Shown: in pieces, positions 1,985 to 9,753 of the stretch
How positions within the stretch are numbered: the stretch's first letter is position 1
Layout of the letters: every line of letters starts with the position of its first letter
DNA from: a phage
DNA: 64,000 nt
Reading direction: 5' to 3' (one strand)
Sequence record: NC_104726.1
Program-made: the position numbers and the translations under genes
The notes under the pieces: model-generated
What the model was told of the DNA's origin: nothing
Seen by the model: the letters and a program-made list of their open reading frames with translations, nothing else
The model's database searches: none

Positions 1985-2481
1985 TTATTGCGCTCCTTGT
2001 AGTAGATATGACTCCCGAATTGAGCTGTCCTCTGCATCTTTTTTGCCCATTTCGGTCGTACTTTGGTTGTATGGTAGTGTGTTGCTCCACCTGTTATGTC
2101 CATAGCCATGTATGCAACATGGTTGTTATTATAGACCTTTAGAAGCATCTTTGCAAGACTTTTAGCGTGATCCCATGAATCTTTTTCTGTCACCTTAAAA
2201 GTTTTGCCGTGGTTTGTCCACGAAAACTGGTTAGGTTGGTAGACAATCTTTCTTATAGTGTCTGGGTATTTGGGGTGAGATTTCCTGTTTAGTGTGGCAA
2301 ACCCTGATGCCAGCATACCCATCGTGCCATCCCCTCTAGCCTCCCTGTAGATATTGCATGCCAGAATGTTTTCCTTAGTATCTGAGGGCTTGCAAGTATG
2401 ATATACTTTTTGTTTTGGTGCTGCAACAACAGGCAGCGATAAAAATGCGCTCAAAATAATAGCAAAGATCTTAATTTTCAC
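1981..2481 (-). CDS. secreted SleB/CwlJ-like cell-wall hydrolase (candidate endolysin)
   Basis: GTG start at 2479-2481 with GGAG upstream; N-terminal signal-like segment MKIKIFAIILSAFLSLPVVAAP; motifs NIYREARGDG, QPNQFSW, GGATHYH, FGSHIYY typical of the SleB-type hydrolase family. Confidence 0.6.
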   Translation of the reverse strand: MKIKIFAIILSAFLSLPVVAAPKQKVYHTCKPSDTKENILACNIYREARGDGTMGMLASGFATLNRKSHPKYPDTIRKIVYQPNQFSWTNHGKTFKVTEKDSWDHAKSLAKMLLKVYNNNHVAYMAMDITGGATHYHTTKVRPKWAKKMQRTAQFGSHIYYKERNK

Positions 2482-2499
2482 AATAACTCCAAATAGAAA

Positions 2500-2519
2500 A
2501 TCCCCGCCGAAGCGGGGGA
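2500..2519 (-). terminator. hairpin CCCCGC-CGAA-GCGGGG followed by T-rich tract on minus strand
   Basis: Perfect 6-bp GC stem with 4-nt loop; minus strand continues ATTTTCTATTT; sits between genes 2531-2911 and 1981-2481. Confidence 0.4.
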
Positions 2520-2530
2520 GGTCTTAGAAA

Positions 2531-2911
2531 TTAATCGTAGTGTGCCAAAATCTCTCCATCGTTGCAAGTTCCCTCTACAAAGTTATGAAGATTCATGCAC
2601 TCATCTTGATAGAAGAATTTACCGCTTTTCAGCCGTAAGCCAAACAACTCCGCATCTCCACGATGGCAAGCCTCTACAAGTTCATAGATTTCATACGGCA
2701 ACTCTCCGTCGTCATGGAAGAACCCAGCCTTATCGTTGACATAGATGAAGAAATAATCACTGCTGTCGCAAGCGTCCAATATTTTAAACCAGATTTCATC
2801 TACATCTTTTTCTCGGATATCGATCACACAAGTGGAGCTGCATTCGTACTCCTTCTCCGGCTCCTCGGTCAATACCACCAGGTAGTTTCCCCGCTTACCT
2901 ACTTTAGCCAT
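2531..2911 (-). CDS. hypothetical protein (126 aa)
   Basis: ATG 2909-2911 with AAGGGGG upstream; no recognisable motif. Confidence 0.5.
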   Translation of the reverse strand: MAKVGKRGNYLVVLTEEPEKEYECSSTCVIDIREKDVDEIWFKILDACDSSDYFFIYVNDKAGFFHDDGELPYEIYELVEACHRGDAELFGLRLKSGKFFYQDECMNLHNFVEGTCNDGEILAHYD

Positions 2912-2920
2912 ACAACCCCC

Positions 2921-4105
2921 TTAAGCTTTAGCCAAAATGGCGCTAAACTCTTCACCAAACTCTTTTACAATCTTCATCAGGTTTGGGTATGCTTTGATCA
3001 GCTGAGCAACAATCTTGTCACGCCCTTTGCCGATAAGCAAGGCATTTCCTAAGGCATTAGGTTTCATCATCGCCATAAAGACTGAGAATACAAAATCTCG
3101 GTTCTCGTCCTTGAAGTTTTCCCAAAGGAAATCGAGGAAGTTTGCCACGCAGCTGACAAGATCTTCGTCTGAGATACTTGCATTTTCCATCATATTACGA
3201 ATAGCGATACAACCTTCAGATCCAAGAATCCACAAAATGTCTGGCTGCTTAGGACCTACGTATTCTTTGCAACCACCTGCCATAATCCGACCGATTTCAG
3301 GTAAATTGCGTTTCTTGGTGTGGTATGTCCAGATCTCTACCGCTGCAGTGTGACCAATAGCACCTTGCAGAAGAACACGGGCCATAGCGTCAGAAATAAT
3401 ACCGCTGTCAAAATCGTGCAAGATATCAGATGCAGCAACCCAAGATCGCGGTGTGGCAAAAGATGGACAATTAATCTCAGCCATGGCCTCATAATTATCG
3501 ATAGCTGATGGAACTCTTTTCAGATATCCAATTACAGAGGAGTGCACCCCATTAAGGAATGCGTAGTCCTCAATAAACACCTCTGCATTGCTTGTAACCT
3601 CTACAATGATAAAACGGTTAGCCAGAGGGGCTTCGAGCGCCGAAAGAACCGCACCATCTGTAGAACGGTTACCAGCAGCCACAAAAACAGAACCCTTAGG
3701 GAATGCATAGGTACCGCACTTGTGGTCAAGCATAATTTGCATTGCAACCTTTTGCAGGTAGTTATCTGCATGAGTGAGCTCATCCAGAAAGATAATTCCG
3801 CTCCAGTCAGGATCCGCAGGCCAAAATTCTGGAATTGCAAACACTGTACGTGTAGTTCCATCCGCCTCTACAGGGATAGGTAGCCCAGATAAGTCGGCAG
3901 GATCTTTATCTGACAGTCGCACGTCAACAAGGTTGTCATCTCGCTCACCGAACATATTATCAGCGATCTGCTTCATCACCTGGCTTTTACCCACACCCAT
4001 TGGTCCCAAAATTAGGACAGATCGGCTATGACGTTGGGCAAACTGAATAATAGCTGGCAACTCACGGACAGTGATTTGACCACTTTCGAATACGTTTCTT
4101 GACAT
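2921..4105 (-). CDS. MoxR-like AAA+ ATPase
   Basis: Walker A ILGPMGVGKSQ, Walker B IIFLDEL, sensor-like LEAPLANRFIIV; ATG 4103-4105 with GAGGA upstream. Confidence 0.65.
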   Translation of the reverse strand: MSRNVFESGQITVRELPAIIQFAQRHSRSVLILGPMGVGKSQVMKQIADNMFGERDDNLVDVRLSDKDPADLSGLPIPVEADGTTRTVFAIPEFWPADPDWSGIIFLDELTHADNYLQKVAMQIMLDHKCGTYAFPKGSVFVAAGNRSTDGAVLSALEAPLANRFIIVEVTSNAEVFIEDYAFLNGVHSSVIGYLKRVPSAIDNYEAMAEINCPSFATPRSWVAASDILHDFDSGIISDAMARVLLQGAIGHTAAVEIWTYHTKKRNLPEIGRIMAGGCKEYVGPKQPDILWILGSEGCIAIRNMMENASISDEDLVSCVANFLDFLWENFKDENRDFVFSVFMAMMKPNALGNALLIGKGRDKIVAQLIKAYPNLMKIVKEFGEEFSAILAKA

Positions 4106-4374
4106 TAGTAAAAGTCCTCTACTTGTGTGTAAGTGTTTTCAAAGTTTTCCAAAACAGATATCACATCGGATCTGTCAATATCATACGTGACTCTCCAGTT
4201 GTACGCAACCCTTTCTGCTGTTGCCTCTTCTGGCGCTAGTCGTCTGCTGGCATAAAAGAGTGTTGGAGTACACTTTCTTGCTTGCCCTCTAACTTTCCCA
4301 TAATAATATCTGTGAATATCTTTGTCAAAATTTAACTCTTTTTCTGCACGAAGTTCATATTGCTGGTATAACAT
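4105..4374 (-). CDS. hypothetical protein (89 aa)
   Basis: ATG 4372-4374 with AAGGAG upstream; stop overlaps start of downstream ATPase gene. Confidence 0.45.
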   Translation of the reverse strand: MLYQQYELRAEKELNFDKDIHRYYYGKVRGQARKCTPTLFYASRRLAPEEATAERVAYNWRVTYDIDRSDVISVLENFENTYTQVEDFY

Positions 4375-4418
4375 CTCTACTACTCCTTAAGCAGCATCCT
4401 TGCCGCCATTCCTGCCCA

Positions 4419-4799
4419 CTAAAATGCAGTCCGAATCCAGACAAGGTTCTTATCTGCCCAATCATAGAGGCAAGTCATTGCACTATTGAATTGCTCACAC
4501 GGAGGATAATCTTCTTCCATCTGACGCATAGCAGAGCCTTGTGGGTAAAGCTCCCGTGCTGCAAACCACGCGTCGTAGTCATCAACGGTGTCGAAGTAGT
4601 ATACAACATCCTCCAACTCAGGATCGAACTTTGAACTATCAGGATCCAGTTGTTCAGGGAACTTGGAGCGTAACTTGCCAGCCACAATACTTGCCAACTC
4701 GCTAACATGCTTATTGTCCCACTCCACTAGCTTCCCGTCTTCAGTGATGCGTCCTAACCACTGATCATGAAGGTCAACTGTTGTCTTCCACCGGGCCAT
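4419..4799 (-). CDS. hypothetical protein (126 aa)
   Basis: ATG start, operon context, acidic protein. Confidence 0.45.
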   Translation of the reverse strand: MARWKTTVDLHDQWLGRITEDGKLVEWDNKHVSELASIVAGKLRSKFPEQLDPDSSKFDPELEDVVYYFDTVDDYDAWFAARELYPQGSAMRQMEEDYPPCEQFNSAMTCLYDWADKNLVWIRTAF

Positions 4800-4801
4800 T
4801 A

Positions 4802-5059
4802 TCAGTCCACCTCTTCTTCTCGTTGTAGTTCAAGATACCCGTAGGTCTGGACATCTTCAAGGGTGTGGAACTCCCCATCTGCCGCTAATGCACGAACAAC
4901 TTGGCACAAAACCTTATGAGGAACTTCATCCAGACCAAGATTCAGTGCAGGGAACACCTTATCTAAGTCAACAAAATAAACGAACTGGAGCTCACCAGCT
5001 TCAAAAGGTGTATCTTCAATAAACATCTTCTCGGCATTAGTCAAGATCTGCACTTTCAT
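4802..5059 (-). CDS. hypothetical protein (85 aa)
   Basis: ATG 5057-5059 with GAGGAGG upstream. Confidence 0.45.
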   Translation of the reverse strand: MKVQILTNAEKMFIEDTPFEAGELQFVYFVDLDKVFPALNLGLDEVPHKVLCQVVRALAADGEFHTLEDVQTYGYLELQREEEVD

Positions 5060-5415
5060 TATTCTACCTCCTCTTCTTTTTCTTCGGCATTAGTTTCATG
5101 GCTACCCCACTCTGGAGTTTCCACCTCGATAGTAAACTCACGCACTACACGGTAATTGCCCATGAAGCGCTCCACTTCGTCAAGGCTTATGGAGAAGCCA
5201 TTGGCAACCAGGTCTGCAGCACCCTCTTCTACCAGGTAGTCCAGATTGGCTTCCAGAGCTTCAGGTTCAAACCCTGTCAATGCAATCAGATAACCTTTCC
5301 CTTCATCAGGGAGGACAATACATCCCAACTGATTTTCTTTAAAAAGGCAGTGACCATCATTGTTAATTGGGTGTTCATTGCAGTAAATAGCTGCACGATA
5401 AGTAACTTTAGACAT
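5059..5415 (-). CDS. hypothetical protein (~118 aa)
   Basis: Track start at 5436 is a TTG; the ATG at 5413-5415 has AAGGAG 9 nt upstream and is the likelier start. Confidence 0.45.
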   Translation of the reverse strand: MSKVTYRAAIYCNEHPINNDGHCLFKENQLGCIVLPDEGKGYLIALTGFEPEALEANLDYLVEEGAADLVANGFSISLDEVERFMGNYRVVREFTIEVETPEWGSHETNAEEKEEEVE

Positions 5416-5428
5416 CGGTAAGGTCTCC

Positions 5429-5701
5429 TTAGGCAATTGTCATTTTACATTCTTGAAATTTTAACACAAGACGGTGATTGTGTCTAGTGTCTAAAAAGAT
5501 TTTTTCAACCATCAGGCACACGGTATAACCGTCCATCTTGTTGACAACAAAATCTCCAGGATGAGGGAGGATGTCTCCCGGATTGGGGAAACATAGTCCA
5601 CTCAGAAAGGCATCGTCAGTGGTGGACTTAATAGATTTCCACACACTGTCTGCCTGAACATGTTCACCAACGTAATATACATTACCACATGCCTTCATCA
5701 T
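5429..5701 (-). CDS. hypothetical protein (~90 aa)
   Basis: Track start at 5707 is TTG; ATG at 5699-5701 preceded by GAGGG. Confidence 0.4.
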   Translation of the reverse strand: MMKACGNVYYVGEHVQADSVWKSIKSTTDDAFLSGLCFPNPGDILPHPGDFVVNKMDGYTVCLMVEKIFLDTRHNHRLVLKFQECKMTIA

Positions 5702-5703
5702 AG

Positions 5704-6603
5704 TCAAACCCTCGCATAAATTAAACTTGTATCAGTATACTTCTTTAATGGGTAAATATCCTGTCCATAGATGCAATCATTAAACACCTCATCTACCCAA
5801 AGGCTACACTTATATCCCATCATTTCTAAAACACCCATCTCTTCTTCGGTAAACTTATCACCGCTCTTGCAAGATGTCAATACCTCATTCTGAACTCTTG
5901 CTACCTCGAAGCGGTTATTGGCAATATCGCTATTGGCGATCAAATACTCACCTAGAGGGTGTGCGGCATTAAAGATGCACAGTGGACGGCTGACGTAATA
6001 GTCTCCGGGTGTATAAAAATTGTTGAGGTCTTTCACTAGAACATTCTTATCAGTCACTTCATTTATAACATCATGCATATCGCACATCTTTATATGTTTG
6101 AGGATTCCATCCCCCATCACAAAATAAAAACTTGCTGAGACACTTTCGGCATAGATCTTACTAGATCCGTTGTAGTTGTATTTTACTCGGATGCTAACGG
6201 GGGTTTTTCCTGTCGCGTTAGCCATCATCCAAAGAAATGGCAGCTCATACTTCTCCTCTGAGGAAACAAAAGGTGAGGTAGCCAGAGATCGAAAACCTCC
6301 AGAGAAGTTGAAAGTTACAGAACCGCTCCGGCGGTATGATACCGCGTATTCTACTTTTATATCGACGTACCCATTGGAATAGGTGTGTCCTTCATTATCT
6401 AAATATGTCCACTTATCAGACCCAGATACCAATCTACGCTCAATAACCTTCATCACTACAGGAATTAGTGGGTTGGTACAAACCGCTTTTGAAGTAGCTT
6501 TATCATCTAAAGCCTCGTAAATTGCAGAAAGGATGTCCCCAGCTGAAAGATTGGTTGTTATGTCCTGTTTCCACCGCGTACTAAAACTGTTAAGATTTGC
6601 CAT
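5704..6603 (-). CDS. hypothetical protein (299 aa)
   Basis: ATG 6601-6603 with GGAG upstream; first gene of the leftward unit reading out of the divergent promoter region. Confidence 0.5.
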   Translation of the reverse strand: MANLNSFSTRWKQDITTNLSAGDILSAIYEALDDKATSKAVCTNPLIPVVMKVIERRLVSGSDKWTYLDNEGHTYSNGYVDIKVEYAVSYRRSGSVTFNFSGGFRSLATSPFVSSEEKYELPFLWMMANATGKTPVSIRVKYNYNGSSKIYAESVSASFYFVMGDGILKHIKMCDMHDVINEVTDKNVLVKDLNNFYTPGDYYVSRPLCIFNAAHPLGEYLIANSDIANNRFEVARVQNEVLTSCKSGDKFTEEEMGVLEMMGYKCSLWVDEVFNDCIYGQDIYPLKKYTDTSLIYARV

Positions 6604-6643
6604 AAGTAAGTGCTCCTATGTTAGTTTTCTTTCGAATGGGTGC

Positions 6644-6672
6644 ACTATATCGGAGATTTATAGTAAAGTCAA
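6644..6672 (-). promoter_or_regulatory. sigma70-like promoter (TTGACT-N17-TATAGT) for leftward genes
   Basis: Minus-strand -35 at 6667-6672 and -10 at 6644-6649 with 17-nt spacer, upstream of gene 5704-6603. Confidence 0.4.
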
Positions 6673-6688
6673 CACGTTTTTGATGTTG

Positions 6689-6717
6689 ACATCTATTGAA
6701 ACAATTGATACGATTTC
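6689..6717 (+). promoter_or_regulatory. sigma70-like promoter (TTGACA-N17-TACGAT) for rightward genes
   Basis: -35 TTGACA at 6689-6694, -10-like TACGAT at 6712-6717, upstream of gene 6746-7723; back-to-back with the leftward promoter. Confidence 0.35.
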
Positions 6718-6745
6718 TTCACTTACAGAGCACGAGAGACAACTC

Positions 6746-7723
6746 ATGAATCTTGAAAAATATTATACACCAGAAGAGTTAGAGCGCCTGCTCAAAAAAT
6801 ATAGACGCAAACAGAATAATGCACGGAAACGAGATATAGAGTTCAACCTGTCATGGGAAGAATACCTCCTATTTGGTAAAAAACTTTTAGGAGATGGAGT
6901 ATGCGACTATACCCTTATACCTTTTGACATGCACACAGATGAAAACGGGCTGGGAAATCCTTTCTACCCATCTTTGGAGCGTATAGATGATGAAGGTCCT
7001 TACGCAATTGACAATTGTTGTGTGGTAGGGTTGAGGTGCAATGCTCTGAAAGACTGTCTGGTAGATAAAAAGACTGCAATCCTGATTAAAGACAAAACTG
7101 ATCGAAAAATTGTCCAGCAGATGATGCTCCACCTGAGCGAAGAGCGTATGGAGAAATTGAAAGGTGATTATACTTTTGAAGATTTCATCTTGCAATACGG
7201 GACAGAAGAAGATAAACTAGCACTATTTGACGAAGAGGAAGAAGATATGTCACCAATGCAGGACTTTAAAAATTTCATGGCTGATCGTGCAGCCAACAAA
7301 CACATTTCAGACATCGTGAACGAGACTGTGACAGAAGAAGTTGAAGAACAGAACTCTGAAGAGGAAAAAGAGCCTCAGGAGGTCGAAGAGGGGATTGCAG
7401 AAGAGGTTCCTGCACTGCCTGATGATGTTGAGATTGCTAAGGCTTACACTTTCTATTGTCAAACGTTCTACGATGCAGGTATGAAAGTTGATCTGTCGTT
7501 CAGCCAATTTAAGAGTTCGTATATTCGCAAATGCTGTGCTTTAACTGGTGAACGTCTCGGAGCTGGACTTAAACCACTGTTGGTGACCGACTGGAATAAA
7601 GGTTTCACTAAAGGAAACTTTATGGTAGTATCTCCAATTATGGAGAAAGCTATGACAGATCTTATGAAGACCACCCGCATGACAATGACCGAGTTGGCAG
7701 GTATTTTCAAACACGTTAAATAA
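6746..7723 (+). CDS. hypothetical protein with two Cys-containing repeat modules and an acidic linker
   Basis: ATG at 6746; track start at 6533 overlaps the opposite gene and promoter region; repeats around CDYTLIPFD...DNCCVVGLRCNALKDC and CCALTGERL...WNKGFTKGNFMVV; poly-acidic stretches EEEEDMSP and EEVEEQNSEEEKEPQEVEE. Confidence 0.5.
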   Translation: MNLEKYYTPEELERLLKKYRRKQNNARKRDIEFNLSWEEYLLFGKKLLGDGVCDYTLIPFDMHTDENGLGNPFYPSLERIDDEGPYAIDNCCVVGLRCNALKDCLVDKKTAILIKDKTDRKIVQQMMLHLSEERMEKLKGDYTFEDFILQYGTEEDKLALFDEEEEDMSPMQDFKNFMADRAANKHISDIVNETVTEEVEEQNSEEEKEPQEVEEGIAEEVPALPDDVEIAKAYTFYCQTFYDAGMKVDLSFSQFKSSYIRKCCALTGERLGAGLKPLLVTDWNKGFTKGNFMVVSPIMEKAMTDLMKTTRMTMTELAGIFKHVK

Positions 7724-7727
7724 TGAC

Positions 7728-7744
7728 AGGGGCCAATGGCCCCT
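7728..7744 (+). terminator. hairpin AGGGGCC-AAT-GGCCCCT after gene 6746-7723
   Basis: 7-bp perfect stem 5 nt after the stop at 7721-7723, followed by TCTGGAGTTTT. Confidence 0.3.
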
Positions 7745-7756
7745 TCTGGAGTTTTA

Positions 7757-9217
7757 ATGGATAGCAGAAGTTCAGAAATCATTACCTCACAGAAAGATGA
7801 TGCCCTGAGAATGTTGCAGGCTGCACGTATGTATCTCCTTGAAAAGCTGCCGTTTTATGGCACACTACTGTCAGGGTTGCAGTTCGTAGAAAACCACACA
7901 TGGTGCTCCACCATGGCAACCGACCATAAACGCATCTATTACAGTCCTGAGTTCATTATGGGATTGGCTGATGAACGCAAGGCTATTCTTAAGGCTTCTC
8001 TAACTGACGAGCAGTTTGAGATGGCTGAAGTTTTCTATTCCCCAAAATCTGTGAAAGAGGTGGCCTTCCTTCTGTCACATGAGGTGGGGCATATTATCTG
8101 TGATCACCTAGTCCGTGGTAAAAGCTTTGAGCCGGAACTGTTCAATATTGCTTGTGATCACGTTATCAACACAGGCCTTGTGGTTGACTTTAGCAAACCT
8201 CCTTGTGTTTTCTTCCCGAAGGGGAAAAGCACTACGTTCCTGAAAGGTAAGCCTTTTGGCTTCTTAGCCAGCTGCTACTGCGACATGAAGTTTCATGGAT
8301 GGATTGCTGAGAACGTTTATGCAGTTCTTGATAAGCAAAGAGATCAGAATAACGGTAAAAGTAAGAACGGTAAAGGTGAGAACTCTCAAAGTGATAAGCG
8401 ACAAACCGATGATCACATGAGTGGGAACGGTGGCACCAGTGATAATCTTGGAAAGGCTATGGGGTATGATCAGCCACAACCTGTAATCAGCCAATCTGAT
8501 AAAGATCAGGCCATGCAGGACTCTGGTGATATGCTGGAGGCAGCAATGCAAGCGTCCGGAGGCCGTTGCCCTGAGGCGGTGCGTGAGTTTGTCAAGAACA
8601 GAGGTAAACCTGTAATCAACTATATAGACATCATTAAGCAACGCATGTTGTCTAAAAGAAAGGCCGAACTGACCTACAGAAAACCTGGTCGCCGATCTGG
8701 GTCTTTGACCAGCACAATGCGAAAAGTTGGGGCTATAAACAAGAACCAGCACGTTATTGTTCCTGGTCGTAATCCGGAAAACACTATAGATATTGTGGTG
8801 GCTTTAGACGTTTCTGGCTCGATCTCTCAAAGAACTTTAAAGAAAATGTTCAATGAAATCACCGGATTGTGCAATCTGTATAAAGAGTTTAAGGTTACAA
8901 TGTTCTGTTGGTCAACTGAGGTTGGAGAGGTTAAAGTATACACTCGCGGCAACATAGACGAGATGATCAACTATGAGGTACACTCAACATGGGGCACAAC
9001 AGCTGCTTGCGTGTTCGAGTATCTGGATGCCAACATACCTAATGCAAAAGATGTCATCGTCCTGACCGACCTATACTTTGAGCATAACTTTGAACAAAAG
9101 GCTGTTGACAACAAGTGGAAAAAGTACGATACTTTATGGGTTCTCACCGAAGGGTATAATAAAAATTATATCCCTAGCTTTGGGAAAACTGTGGAATTAA
9201 TCGAGTACGCTAAGTAA
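7757..9217 (+). CDS. VWA-domain protein with N-terminal HExxH metallopeptidase-like domain
   Basis: HEVGHIICDH...NIACDHVIN zinc-binding-like motif; MIDAS-type VVALDVSGSIS; ATG 7757 preferred over track start 7736, which lies in the hairpin loop. Confidence 0.6.
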   Translation: MDSRSSEIITSQKDDALRMLQAARMYLLEKLPFYGTLLSGLQFVENHTWCSTMATDHKRIYYSPEFIMGLADERKAILKASLTDEQFEMAEVFYSPKSVKEVAFLLSHEVGHIICDHLVRGKSFEPELFNIACDHVINTGLVVDFSKPPCVFFPKGKSTTFLKGKPFGFLASCYCDMKFHGWIAENVYAVLDKQRDQNNGKSKNGKGENSQSDKRQTDDHMSGNGGTSDNLGKAMGYDQPQPVISQSDKDQAMQDSGDMLEAAMQASGGRCPEAVREFVKNRGKPVINYIDIIKQRMLSKRKAELTYRKPGRRSGSLTSTMRKVGAINKNQHVIVPGRNPENTIDIVVALDVSGSISQRTLKKMFNEITGLCNLYKEFKVTMFCWSTEVGEVKVYTRGNIDEMINYEVHSTWGTTAACVFEYLDANIPNAKDVIVLTDLYFEHNFEQKAVDNKWKKYDTLWVLTEGYNKNYIPSFGKTVELIEYAK

Positions 9218-9232
9218 GAGAGGATGTTATTT

Positions 9233-9490
9233 ATGGCAACAGAGGTAGTAATTAAAGCTGAACGCCCAGTTAAAAAAGCTATCAACACGTTCCCTGTGGG
9301 AACCATTGTGAGCATGATCACAGAGTCAGGTCGTGTATCTACGCTGCTGATTGTGAAATCTGCATGTTCTTCTTGTGTGTGGGCTTACGATCTGGACAAG
9401 AAAGAACTAAAATATTTTGTTGGGGAGCTGAAAGCAACCGAGCTCGATGCTCGTATCGAAGTATTTGGTGAAACTATGGAGGAAGAGTAA
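9233..9490 (+). CDS. hypothetical protein (~85 aa)
   Basis: AGAGAGG abuts the track ATG at 9224; ATG 9233 has proper spacing. Confidence 0.45.
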   Translation: MATEVVIKAERPVKKAINTFPVGTIVSMITESGRVSTLLIVKSACSSCVWAYDLDKKELKYFVGELKATELDARIEVFGETMEEE

Positions 9491-9753
9491 TGACCACGAA
9501 AATCACTATTGCAGAACCGAAAGCTAACACGCAACCTATCGAAAAATTTAAATGTGGTGAGGTGGTAACATTCACACCAGATAATGAAGATGCTAAGATT
9601 TTCGCAATGGTCACAGCTGAGTGGATGTGTGACAACACCACACAGGTTCTGCGTTTTGACACCTATCTTACCGATGAAATCAGGAACGACAAGATTGTGA
9701 CTGGTGTGGATACTGAGATTGTTTTCTACAAGAGCTTTTTAGAGGGTTTCTGA
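9490..9753 (+). CDS. hypothetical protein (87 aa)
   Basis: ATG with GGAGGAAGAG upstream; start overlaps upstream stop. Confidence 0.45.
   Translation: MTTKITIAEPKANTQPIEKFKCGEVVTFTPDNEDAKIFAMVTAEWMCDNTTQVLRFDTYLTDEIRNDKIVTGVDTEIVFYKSFLEGF

Follow-up and report, generated by a model that had tools for sequence, protein, structure and literature searches.

A MoxR-type AAA+ ATPase working with a protein that bears a von Willebrand factor A (VWA) domain is a known kind of system. In NorQ/NorD, the ATPase hexamer grips the VWA domain through a finger in the pore, the MIDAS, an adhesion site that depends on a metal ion, is required for the client and not for the ATPase, and the NorD linker is remodelled by ATP hydrolysis (PMC9976466, PMC13036017), while docking places the C-terminus on the post-sensor-1 loop (PMC13036017). 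The MoxR-vWA ternary conflict systems add third components such as VMAP, iSTAND, FtsH or a beta-propeller (Kaur et al. 2020, PMC7159879), and in phage N4 gp24 and gp25 are core conserved genes of the N4-like phages (Schitoviridae) with their function listed as unknown (PMC2784036). Here we describe a couple of this kind in a stretch of 64,000 nucleotides from a phage (sequence record NC_104726.1; the whole stretch is called “the window” below), which begins at the conventional genome start and is the left end of a Vequintavirus, that is, of an rV5-like myovirus of ~137 kb. A MoxR-type ATPase is encoded on the minus strand (2921–4105) and a DUF2201_N-VWA protein on the plus strand (7757–9217), the two genes being divergent with 3.65 kb between them.

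The annotation of both genes is also already known: the rV5 gene table of 2013 named gp4 a “MoxR ATPase” and gp12 a DUF2201_N protein, and many GenBank records carry “MoxR ATPase,” “metallopeptidase” or “VWA-like” for these genes. What is new is comparative, in that the two appear to be one conserved pair, homologous to N4 gp24/gp25, and the divergent layout appears to be a derived inversion.

Linkage of the ATPase and VWA genes across genomes

Gene order in other genomes strongly supports the view that the ATPase and DUF2201-VWA genes make up one conserved pair despite their divergent separation here. We retrieved 80 uncultured-phage loci with the ATPase family from IMG/VR, 70 of them informative, and in 69 of the 70 the ATPase gene is followed immediately, on the same strand, by the DUF2201 gene, with a median gap between the open reading frames (ORFs) of 72 bp; the remaining loci comprise one with the split layout, nine in which the contig ends less than 200 bp from the ATPase gene and one with an inserted gene. 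Seen from the VWA side, the ATPase gene is directly upstream in all six contexts (a 155-kb phage contig, the chromosome of Sulfurivermis fontis and four N4-like phages). N4 gp24 and gp25, which are homologous to the ATPase and the VWA protein, are adjacent, and the ATPase and DUF2201 genes are adjacent again in UPEC06 and SSBI34 (Vequintavirinae). The bacterial context consists of one genome, S. fontis, plus a remark in the N4 record on the likeness of gp24 and gp25 to two proteins of Streptomyces coelicolor. The first-pass annotation of the window, made from its letters alone, had suggested that the two proteins are partners and had named co-conservation in related phages as the check; on these contexts its suggestion is borne out.

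One contig (L036) was considered as a case of the ATPase without its partner, with a 340-amino-acid radical-SAM-like ORF (CNFNCSFC; 2961–3983 of that contig) following the ATPase gene in the usual place of DUF2201. We rejected this case as uninformative, the radical-SAM-like gene filling the 1 kb up to the contig end.

The distribution of the two proteins follows the same lines. A collection of 50,697 phage records has 625 with the VWA protein and 812 with the ATPase, from host genera that are largely identical, and about 118 records hold each of the two proteins at 95% identity or more to the window. In five relatives the identities to the window fall in parallel (ATPase/VWA protein, 50/46, 53/43, 37/38, 36/36 and 35/33%). 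The surroundings of the pair in all lineages looked at are early, transcription or nucleotide-metabolism genes and not structural genes. In PADLOC neither protein had a meaningful match, so that the search gave no link to defence systems already known.

Both ORFs are genuine conserved genes rather than chance ORFs. Escherichia phage I29 is 99.2% identical to the 7-kb region around the gene pair, and 121 phage records, nearly all Vequintavirus, have at least 90% identity to the region. The two spans that had been read from the letters, their divergence and their distance (given as 3.6 kb) were all recovered on measurement. Under the name “Campylobacter phage” (MG0656xx, with C. jejuni as host), sixteen records show 97–98% identity to this Escherichia coli Vequintavirus region, which points to mislabelling or to contaminant phage genomes in that submission.

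Domains and motifs of the two proteins

The ATPase (394 amino acids, the homologue of rV5 gp4; phrog_1297 ATPase, 2e-110) carries a Walker A motif, GPMGVGKS (3983–4006, minus strand), and a Walker B motif with D108-E109 (3779–3784, minus strand; read as FLDE), both read from the sequence. In a 62-sequence alignment of the family, the residues G37, G39, K40, S41, D108, E109, N146 (sensor-1), R164 (the Arg finger) and R220 (the lid arginine, sensor 2) are invariant. Searches with the single sequence (Pfam, NCBIfam, PDB) gave matches at the level of the P-loop only (ClpB, ClpC, p97) and, taken by themselves, would wrongly imply that there is no MoxR assignment. In a large protein search, homologues at E~1e-44 (34% identity, 85% coverage) carry AAA_3 (PF07726), AAA_5 (PF07728) and sometimes bpMoxR (PF20030); AAA_5 and AAA_3 are matched by 31 of the 62 family members (best E 1e-9 and 1e-8), and a profile of the family run against the PDB finds Midasin first (6e-11).

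The AlphaFold model of the ATPase (predicted local distance difference test score, pLDDT, 86) shows by DSSP a helix-2 insert hairpin (75–81/84–90, after helix 2 and before strand 3) as well as a short pre-sensor-1 hairpin (129–134, ahead of the sensor-1 strand), together with an extra C-terminal helical domain at about residues 288–393. The top 13 Foldseek matches of this model in the PDB are all NorQ or CbbQ2 (E 1e-7 to 4e-6, target template-modelling score 0.60–0.66), NorQ being the best at E 1e-7. NorQ and CbbQ2 are MoxR ATPases of the CbbQ/GvpN/NorQ group. Because of the families of the homologues, the Midasin profile match, the hairpins, the NorQ/CbbQ2 matches and the invariant catalytic motifs, we accept the MoxR-type (AAA_3/AAA_5 group, H2-insert clade) assignment that had been predicted for this ATPase, which is a divergent member and has the additional helical domain at its C-terminus.

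Next to the ATPase gene is an ORF of 89 amino acids (4105–4374, minus strand; phrog_13164), the stop of which overlaps the ATPase start (ATGA). It has been labelled “ATPase” or “MoxR ATPase” by transfer and has no P-loop or other ATPase motif. We considered this ORF as a split-off N-terminus of the ATPase and rejected it: besides the missing P-loop, the ATPase aligns with its homologues from residue 1–4, and in UPEC06 and SSBI34 nothing corresponding to the ORF lies upstream of the ATPase. In phage 4MG an 80-amino-acid ORF likewise overlaps the ATPase start, with no sequence similarity to the 89-amino-acid ORF detected. Inside the latter lies the best sigma-70-like match in the region (TTGACA-17-TATTAT, 11/12; 4300–4328, minus strand), which, about 195 bp upstream of the ATPase start, could be an internal ATPase promoter.

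The partner (486 amino acids, the homologue of rV5 gp12; phrog_1314, 5e-123) has a DUF2201_N zincin-like domain, a disordered linker and a VWA domain. The longest form of its ORF starts at 7736 and has 493 amino acids, and our residue numbers follow that form. The true start is probably 7757, as first annotated, since GGAG (7747–7750) precedes the ATG at 7757 by 6 nt while the ATG at 7736 sits within a GC-rich palindrome, AGGGGCCAATGGCCCCT (7728–7744); the 486-amino-acid form is also the one used by most public annotations and by the 536-member protein cluster P0121.

Pfam finds PF13203 (DUF2201_N, putative metallopeptidase) at 99.2 bits against a threshold of 23.2 (E 4e-28) and PF09967 (DUF2201, VWA-like) at E 3e-11, so that the zinc-metallopeptidase-like N-domain and the VWA domain proposed by the first-pass annotation both stand. 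The translation shows a putative zinc-binding and catalytic motif, HEVGHIICDH (H115, E116, H119 and H124; 8078–8107, plus strand), and the VWA domain (8792–9199, plus strand), which has the VWA alpha/beta fold, holds the MIDAS residues DVSGS (D358-x-S360-x-S362; 8807–8821), T421 (8996–8998) and D445 (9068–9070), all on the plus strand. The columns that never vary among 52 homologues from phages and bacteria are H115, E116, H119, H124, A139 and D141 (N-domain) and D358, S360, S362, G420, T421 and D445 (C-domain), and no others; they correspond to the predicted HExxH site and a complete MIDAS. In the model of the protein (pLDDT 85) the N-domain has three strands and then the HExxH helix, the VWA domain is compact, and a low-confidence linker, bounded narrowly at 212–235 or more loosely at about 205–250, is rich in Gly, Ser and Asp. 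The only links of the N-domain to peptidases proper are weak ones, found by profile at the HExxH helix (selecase, BepA and HtpX; M48 and minigluzincin). The claim that this is the only VWA protein agrees with the single match of the DUF2201 family hidden Markov model in the 64-kb window and with the Pfam column of the rV5 gene table, a search that did not exhaust other VWA types.

The rV5 type record (DQ832317, 8972–9081; about 9006 in the window) has one extra T, “CAGCTGTCTTGC” versus “CAGCTG-CTTGC,” just after the MIDAS threonine, which breaks the DUF2201 gene up into two frames, ORF12 and ORF13. This frameshift was seen in the one record of 2006 only, the window and about 118 further Vequintavirus records having the gene intact; it reflects either an error of sequencing from that time or a mutation that arose in the laboratory and truncates the VWA domain.

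The labels in public records also deserve a comment. The DUF2201_N-VWA protein is widely called “HNH endonuclease” in phrog_1314, in RefSeq FFH2 gp012 and in N4 gp25, and once “DNA repair ATPase”; because Pfam gives DUF2201_N and DUF2201 only, these labels look like propagated misannotation.

Divergent layout and the probable inverted block

The split layout was seen only in the window (Vequintavirus), in 4MG (Seunavirus) and in a KB57-like contig (L008), in all of which the ATPase gene is on the minus arm and a gene for an Srd-like protein stands directly before DUF2201 on the plus arm. In UPEC06 and SSBI34 the plus arm carries a RelA/SpoT-like gene, small ORFs, the ATPase and DUF2201, and the Srd-like gene is on the minus arm, so that the Srd-like and ATPase genes exchange arms between SSBI34 and the window (blastp synteny). 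Read from these gene orders, the ancestral state is a putative two-gene operon, ATPase then DUF2201, from which the split layout would be derived, and one inversion would explain the conversion of the UPEC06/SSBI34 order into the split order. It would have been a single event in the common ancestor of Vequintavirus, Seunavirus and the KB57-like phages, with breakpoints in the ATPase–DUF2201 spacer and beyond the Srd-like gene, and the flipped block would include the bidirectional promoter region. Since the promoters lay inside the inverted block, both genes would still be in units leaving the divergent promoter region; they would stay promoter-proximal, and their co-production early in infection would still be possible. 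Adjacency is clearly not required for the partnership.

The RelA/SpoT-like gene, small alarmone synthetase/hydrolase-like, heads the ATPase unit in UPEC06 and SSBI34, and 4MG has a phosphohydrolase gene on the same arm as the ATPase (loci L092, 5503–6066; L093, 4286–4843; and L094, 5106–5615, for these RelA/SpoT-like and phosphohydrolase genes). In the window, the corresponding arm showed no homologue of either.

In the window the minus arm runs from rIIA (2–1984) and a SleB-like hydrolase (1981–2481) through a small ORF to the ATPase and then six further ORFs up to 6603. The strand switch falls in an intergenic region of 142 bp (6604–6745), with which a sign change in GC skew coincides. The gene that opens the plus arm, directly upstream of the VWA gene, encodes the Srd-like anti-sigma/HNH-fold protein (6746–7723, plus strand; rV5 gp11 homologue; phrog_3118, phrog_4592 and phrog_1400; blastp synteny), and about a dozen small ORFs follow the end of the DUF2201 gene at 9217.

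Bidirectional promoters are described for this region of rV5 (PMC3606486). The intergenic region holds two sigma-70-like sites matching the consensus, TTGACT-17-TATAGT on the minus strand (6672–6644) and TTGACA-17-TACGAT on the plus strand (6686–6714), and transcription of the ATPase arm and of the VWA arm would start from these back-to-back sites. The −35 boxes of both lie inside an inverted repeat (6668–6690, GTCAACA-N9-TGTTGAC), which could be a shared operator or just the symmetry of back-to-back sites; SSBI34 has similar back-to-back sigma-70-like sites.

The Srd-like protein itself matches HNH/endonuclease VII-like families plus Srd or “decoy of sigma70” families (phrog_3118, 3322, 4592 and 1400) and has an acidic, Glu-rich central stretch; its public labels conflict, being anti-sigma factor, anti-termination protein and HNH endonuclease. 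The palindrome at 7728–7744, which covers the first in-frame ATG of the DUF2201 gene, lies between the two plus-arm genes and may be a terminator, an attenuator or an RNA-processing hairpin.

A proposed ATP-driven machine, its rivals and known systems

We propose, with a probability of about 0.72, that each of the two genes supplies one half of a single machine, an ATP-driven remodelling complex which resembles NorQ/NorD and carries a peptidase on its VWA partner. The layout of N-domain, linker and VWA domain is like that of NorD with a zincin-like N-domain, hence the proposal of ATP-driven, MIDAS-targeted remodelling with likely cleavage. A MoxR-type AAA+ ring ATPase would work with a VWA-domain adaptor bearing the N-terminal zincin-like HExxH domain; ATP hydrolysis would pull or twist via the linker, the target would be remodelled, and, while bound, it would most likely be cleaved by the fused metallopeptidase. 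We agree with the first-pass annotation that the target is not evident from sequence. An intracellular target, of the host or of the phage, seems more likely than virion assembly because of the early, transcription and nucleotide-metabolism surroundings and because mass spectrometry of rV5 virions (Table S3) gave evidence for neither the ATPase nor the VWA protein. A more specific form of the proposal, a dedicated ATP-dependent, MIDAS-targeted protease that destroys or remodels a specific host protein early, for takeover or counter-defence, is possible but on balance we think it doubtful; it may be tied to the transcription machinery, since genes for an Srd-like anti-sigma protein or a phage RNA polymerase accompany the pair.

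Several points weigh against a peptidase-bearing remodelling complex. Metal-cofactor insertion is common among MoxR-VWA pairs, and the HExxH site could bind metal without protease activity. Matches to the VWA domain swamped both fold searches with the VWA protein, so that the zincin fold of the N-domain is a putative one. The profile searches that the first-pass annotation had asked for supported the VWA/DUF2201 half and not, at face value, the ATPase: AAA_5 stays narrowly below threshold (16.7 bits where 22 are needed, E=0.0075), the top Pfam match, AAA_14, is also sub-threshold (20.7 bits against 27), and NCBIfam gave no family match. Should the rV5 frameshift be genuine, the phage can do without the VWA C-terminus in the laboratory. 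Sigma-70-like sites, counted as consensus matches only, number 17 over 2400–9600 against 14.1 expected, which is not above chance. Finally, literature searches (DUF2201, COG3864, MoxR+rV5 and CRISPRi-ART essentiality) turned up no experiment or function for DUF2201-type pairs, nor any biochemical work on a DUF2201 protein.

The main rival is a metal-insertion system (metallochaperone- or chelatase-like), in which the ATPase-VWA motor delivers a metal held by HExxHxxxxH/D to a phage or host enzyme. NorQD, CoxDE, CobST and BchID work in this way, NorQ and CbbQ stand nearest to the ATPase in structure, BchD turns up among the fold matches to the VWA domain, and NorD, which has a like architecture, belongs to a complex that drives Fe insertion (PMC13036017, PMC9976466); in N4-like phages, moreover, the pair adjoins nucleotide-metabolism enzymes. 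Yet the HExxH glutamate, the general base of zincins, is invariant in 52 of 52 homologues, and a pure metal-holding site would not need it. The Pfam class (putative metallopeptidase) and the weak matches to M48 and minigluzincin also speak for a peptidase, and no conserved client metalloenzyme gene accompanies the pair in the contexts examined, so that we regard metal insertion as unlikely.

A role as a virion-assembly chaperone is very improbable. It has a precedent in p618/p892 of the Acidianus two-tailed virus, a viral MoxR-VWA pair with a part in tail development, as far as the papers citing it describe the case (cited in PMC7159879, PMC9964418), and the carriers are all large tailed phages. 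The pair, however, lies in early or middle regions by anti-sigma, RelA/SpoT-like, RNA polymerase II and nucleotide-metabolism genes and never in structural modules, neither protein has support in the virion spectra, and it is carried by podoviruses, myoviruses and jumbo phages with unrelated tails, as well as by bacterial chromosomes. Least probable of all, and only a slim chance in our view, is that the two were functionally uncoupled in Vequintavirus after the inversion, each gene acting alone or one of them decaying. The separate transcription units and the VWA-domain frameshift of the rV5 type record would fit such a course, but that frameshift is a single extra T in one record, whereas both genes are intact, with catalytic and MIDAS residues kept, across three split-layout lineages at ~45–53% identity, both are present in the ~118 Vequintavirus records, and their divergence rates run in parallel.

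With 33,511 representatives at 50% identity, the family of DUF2201-type partners is very large; it is part of a core N4-like module and is experimentally untouched. The split pair is a natural experiment, the halves being separately deletable, taggable and expressible in tractable coliphages, including those of the BASEL collection. The practical gain is modest, namely a corrected annotation of the VWA protein and a clear hypothesis on complex and substrate, and the interest is likewise modest unless the target is a host-takeover or anti-defence substrate. If a host-takeover protease were indeed at work, it would be a device common to N4-like phages, Vequintavirinae and jumbo phages, and its bacterial cousins, with more than 30,000 family representatives, would be an unrecognised class of two-component regulated proteases.

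Among known systems the pair is most readily placed beside N4 gp24/gp25. The ATPase is homologous to gp24 (AAA ATPase; tblastn E 7e-21, 27% identity over 88% of the query), and gp25 (vWFA superfamily; NC_008720 11164–12306, locus L096 4191–5333) matches DUF2201_N at 3e-87 and DUF2201 at 1e-46 and aligns to the DUF2201 family by hhalign with a probability of 100% (E 9e-57). The N4 genes are adjacent, co-directional and downstream of the RNA polymerase II genes, whereas the Vequintavirus genes are on opposite arms; both Vequintavirus proteins are also longer, the ATPase having its extra C-terminal helical domain and the partner a longer linker. Bacterial AAA_5 + DUF2201 pairs, as in S. fontis, have the same gene order and domain architecture (ATPase, 2.5e-73 to the phage ATPase profile; partner, 2.9e-119), but they are on a cellular chromosome and their proteins are shorter.

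Compared with NorQ/NorD and CbbQ/CbbO, which provide the best structural matches of the ATPase, the pairing is conserved at the gene level and the partner shares the order of N-domain, disordered linker and C-terminal VWA domain with full MIDAS. Sequence identity is, however, 16–20%, the zincin-like HExxH N-domain of the phage protein is unrelated to that of NorD, and no client (cNOR, Rubisco) is encoded near the phage pair. The Acidianus two-tailed virus p618/p892 pair, compared by its published description only, is likewise a virus-encoded MoxR + VWA couple, but of an archaeal virus and its extracellular tail development, and with no fused metallopeptidase known from that description. The MoxR-vWA ternary conflict systems share the MoxR-vWA core, with a peptidase occasionally fused to the vWA protein (PMC7159879), and some homologues of the ATPase match bpMoxR; the phage pair differs in being without a third component (VMAP, iSTAND, FtsH or propeller) or a PADLOC match, and in being phage-encoded rather than host-encoded.

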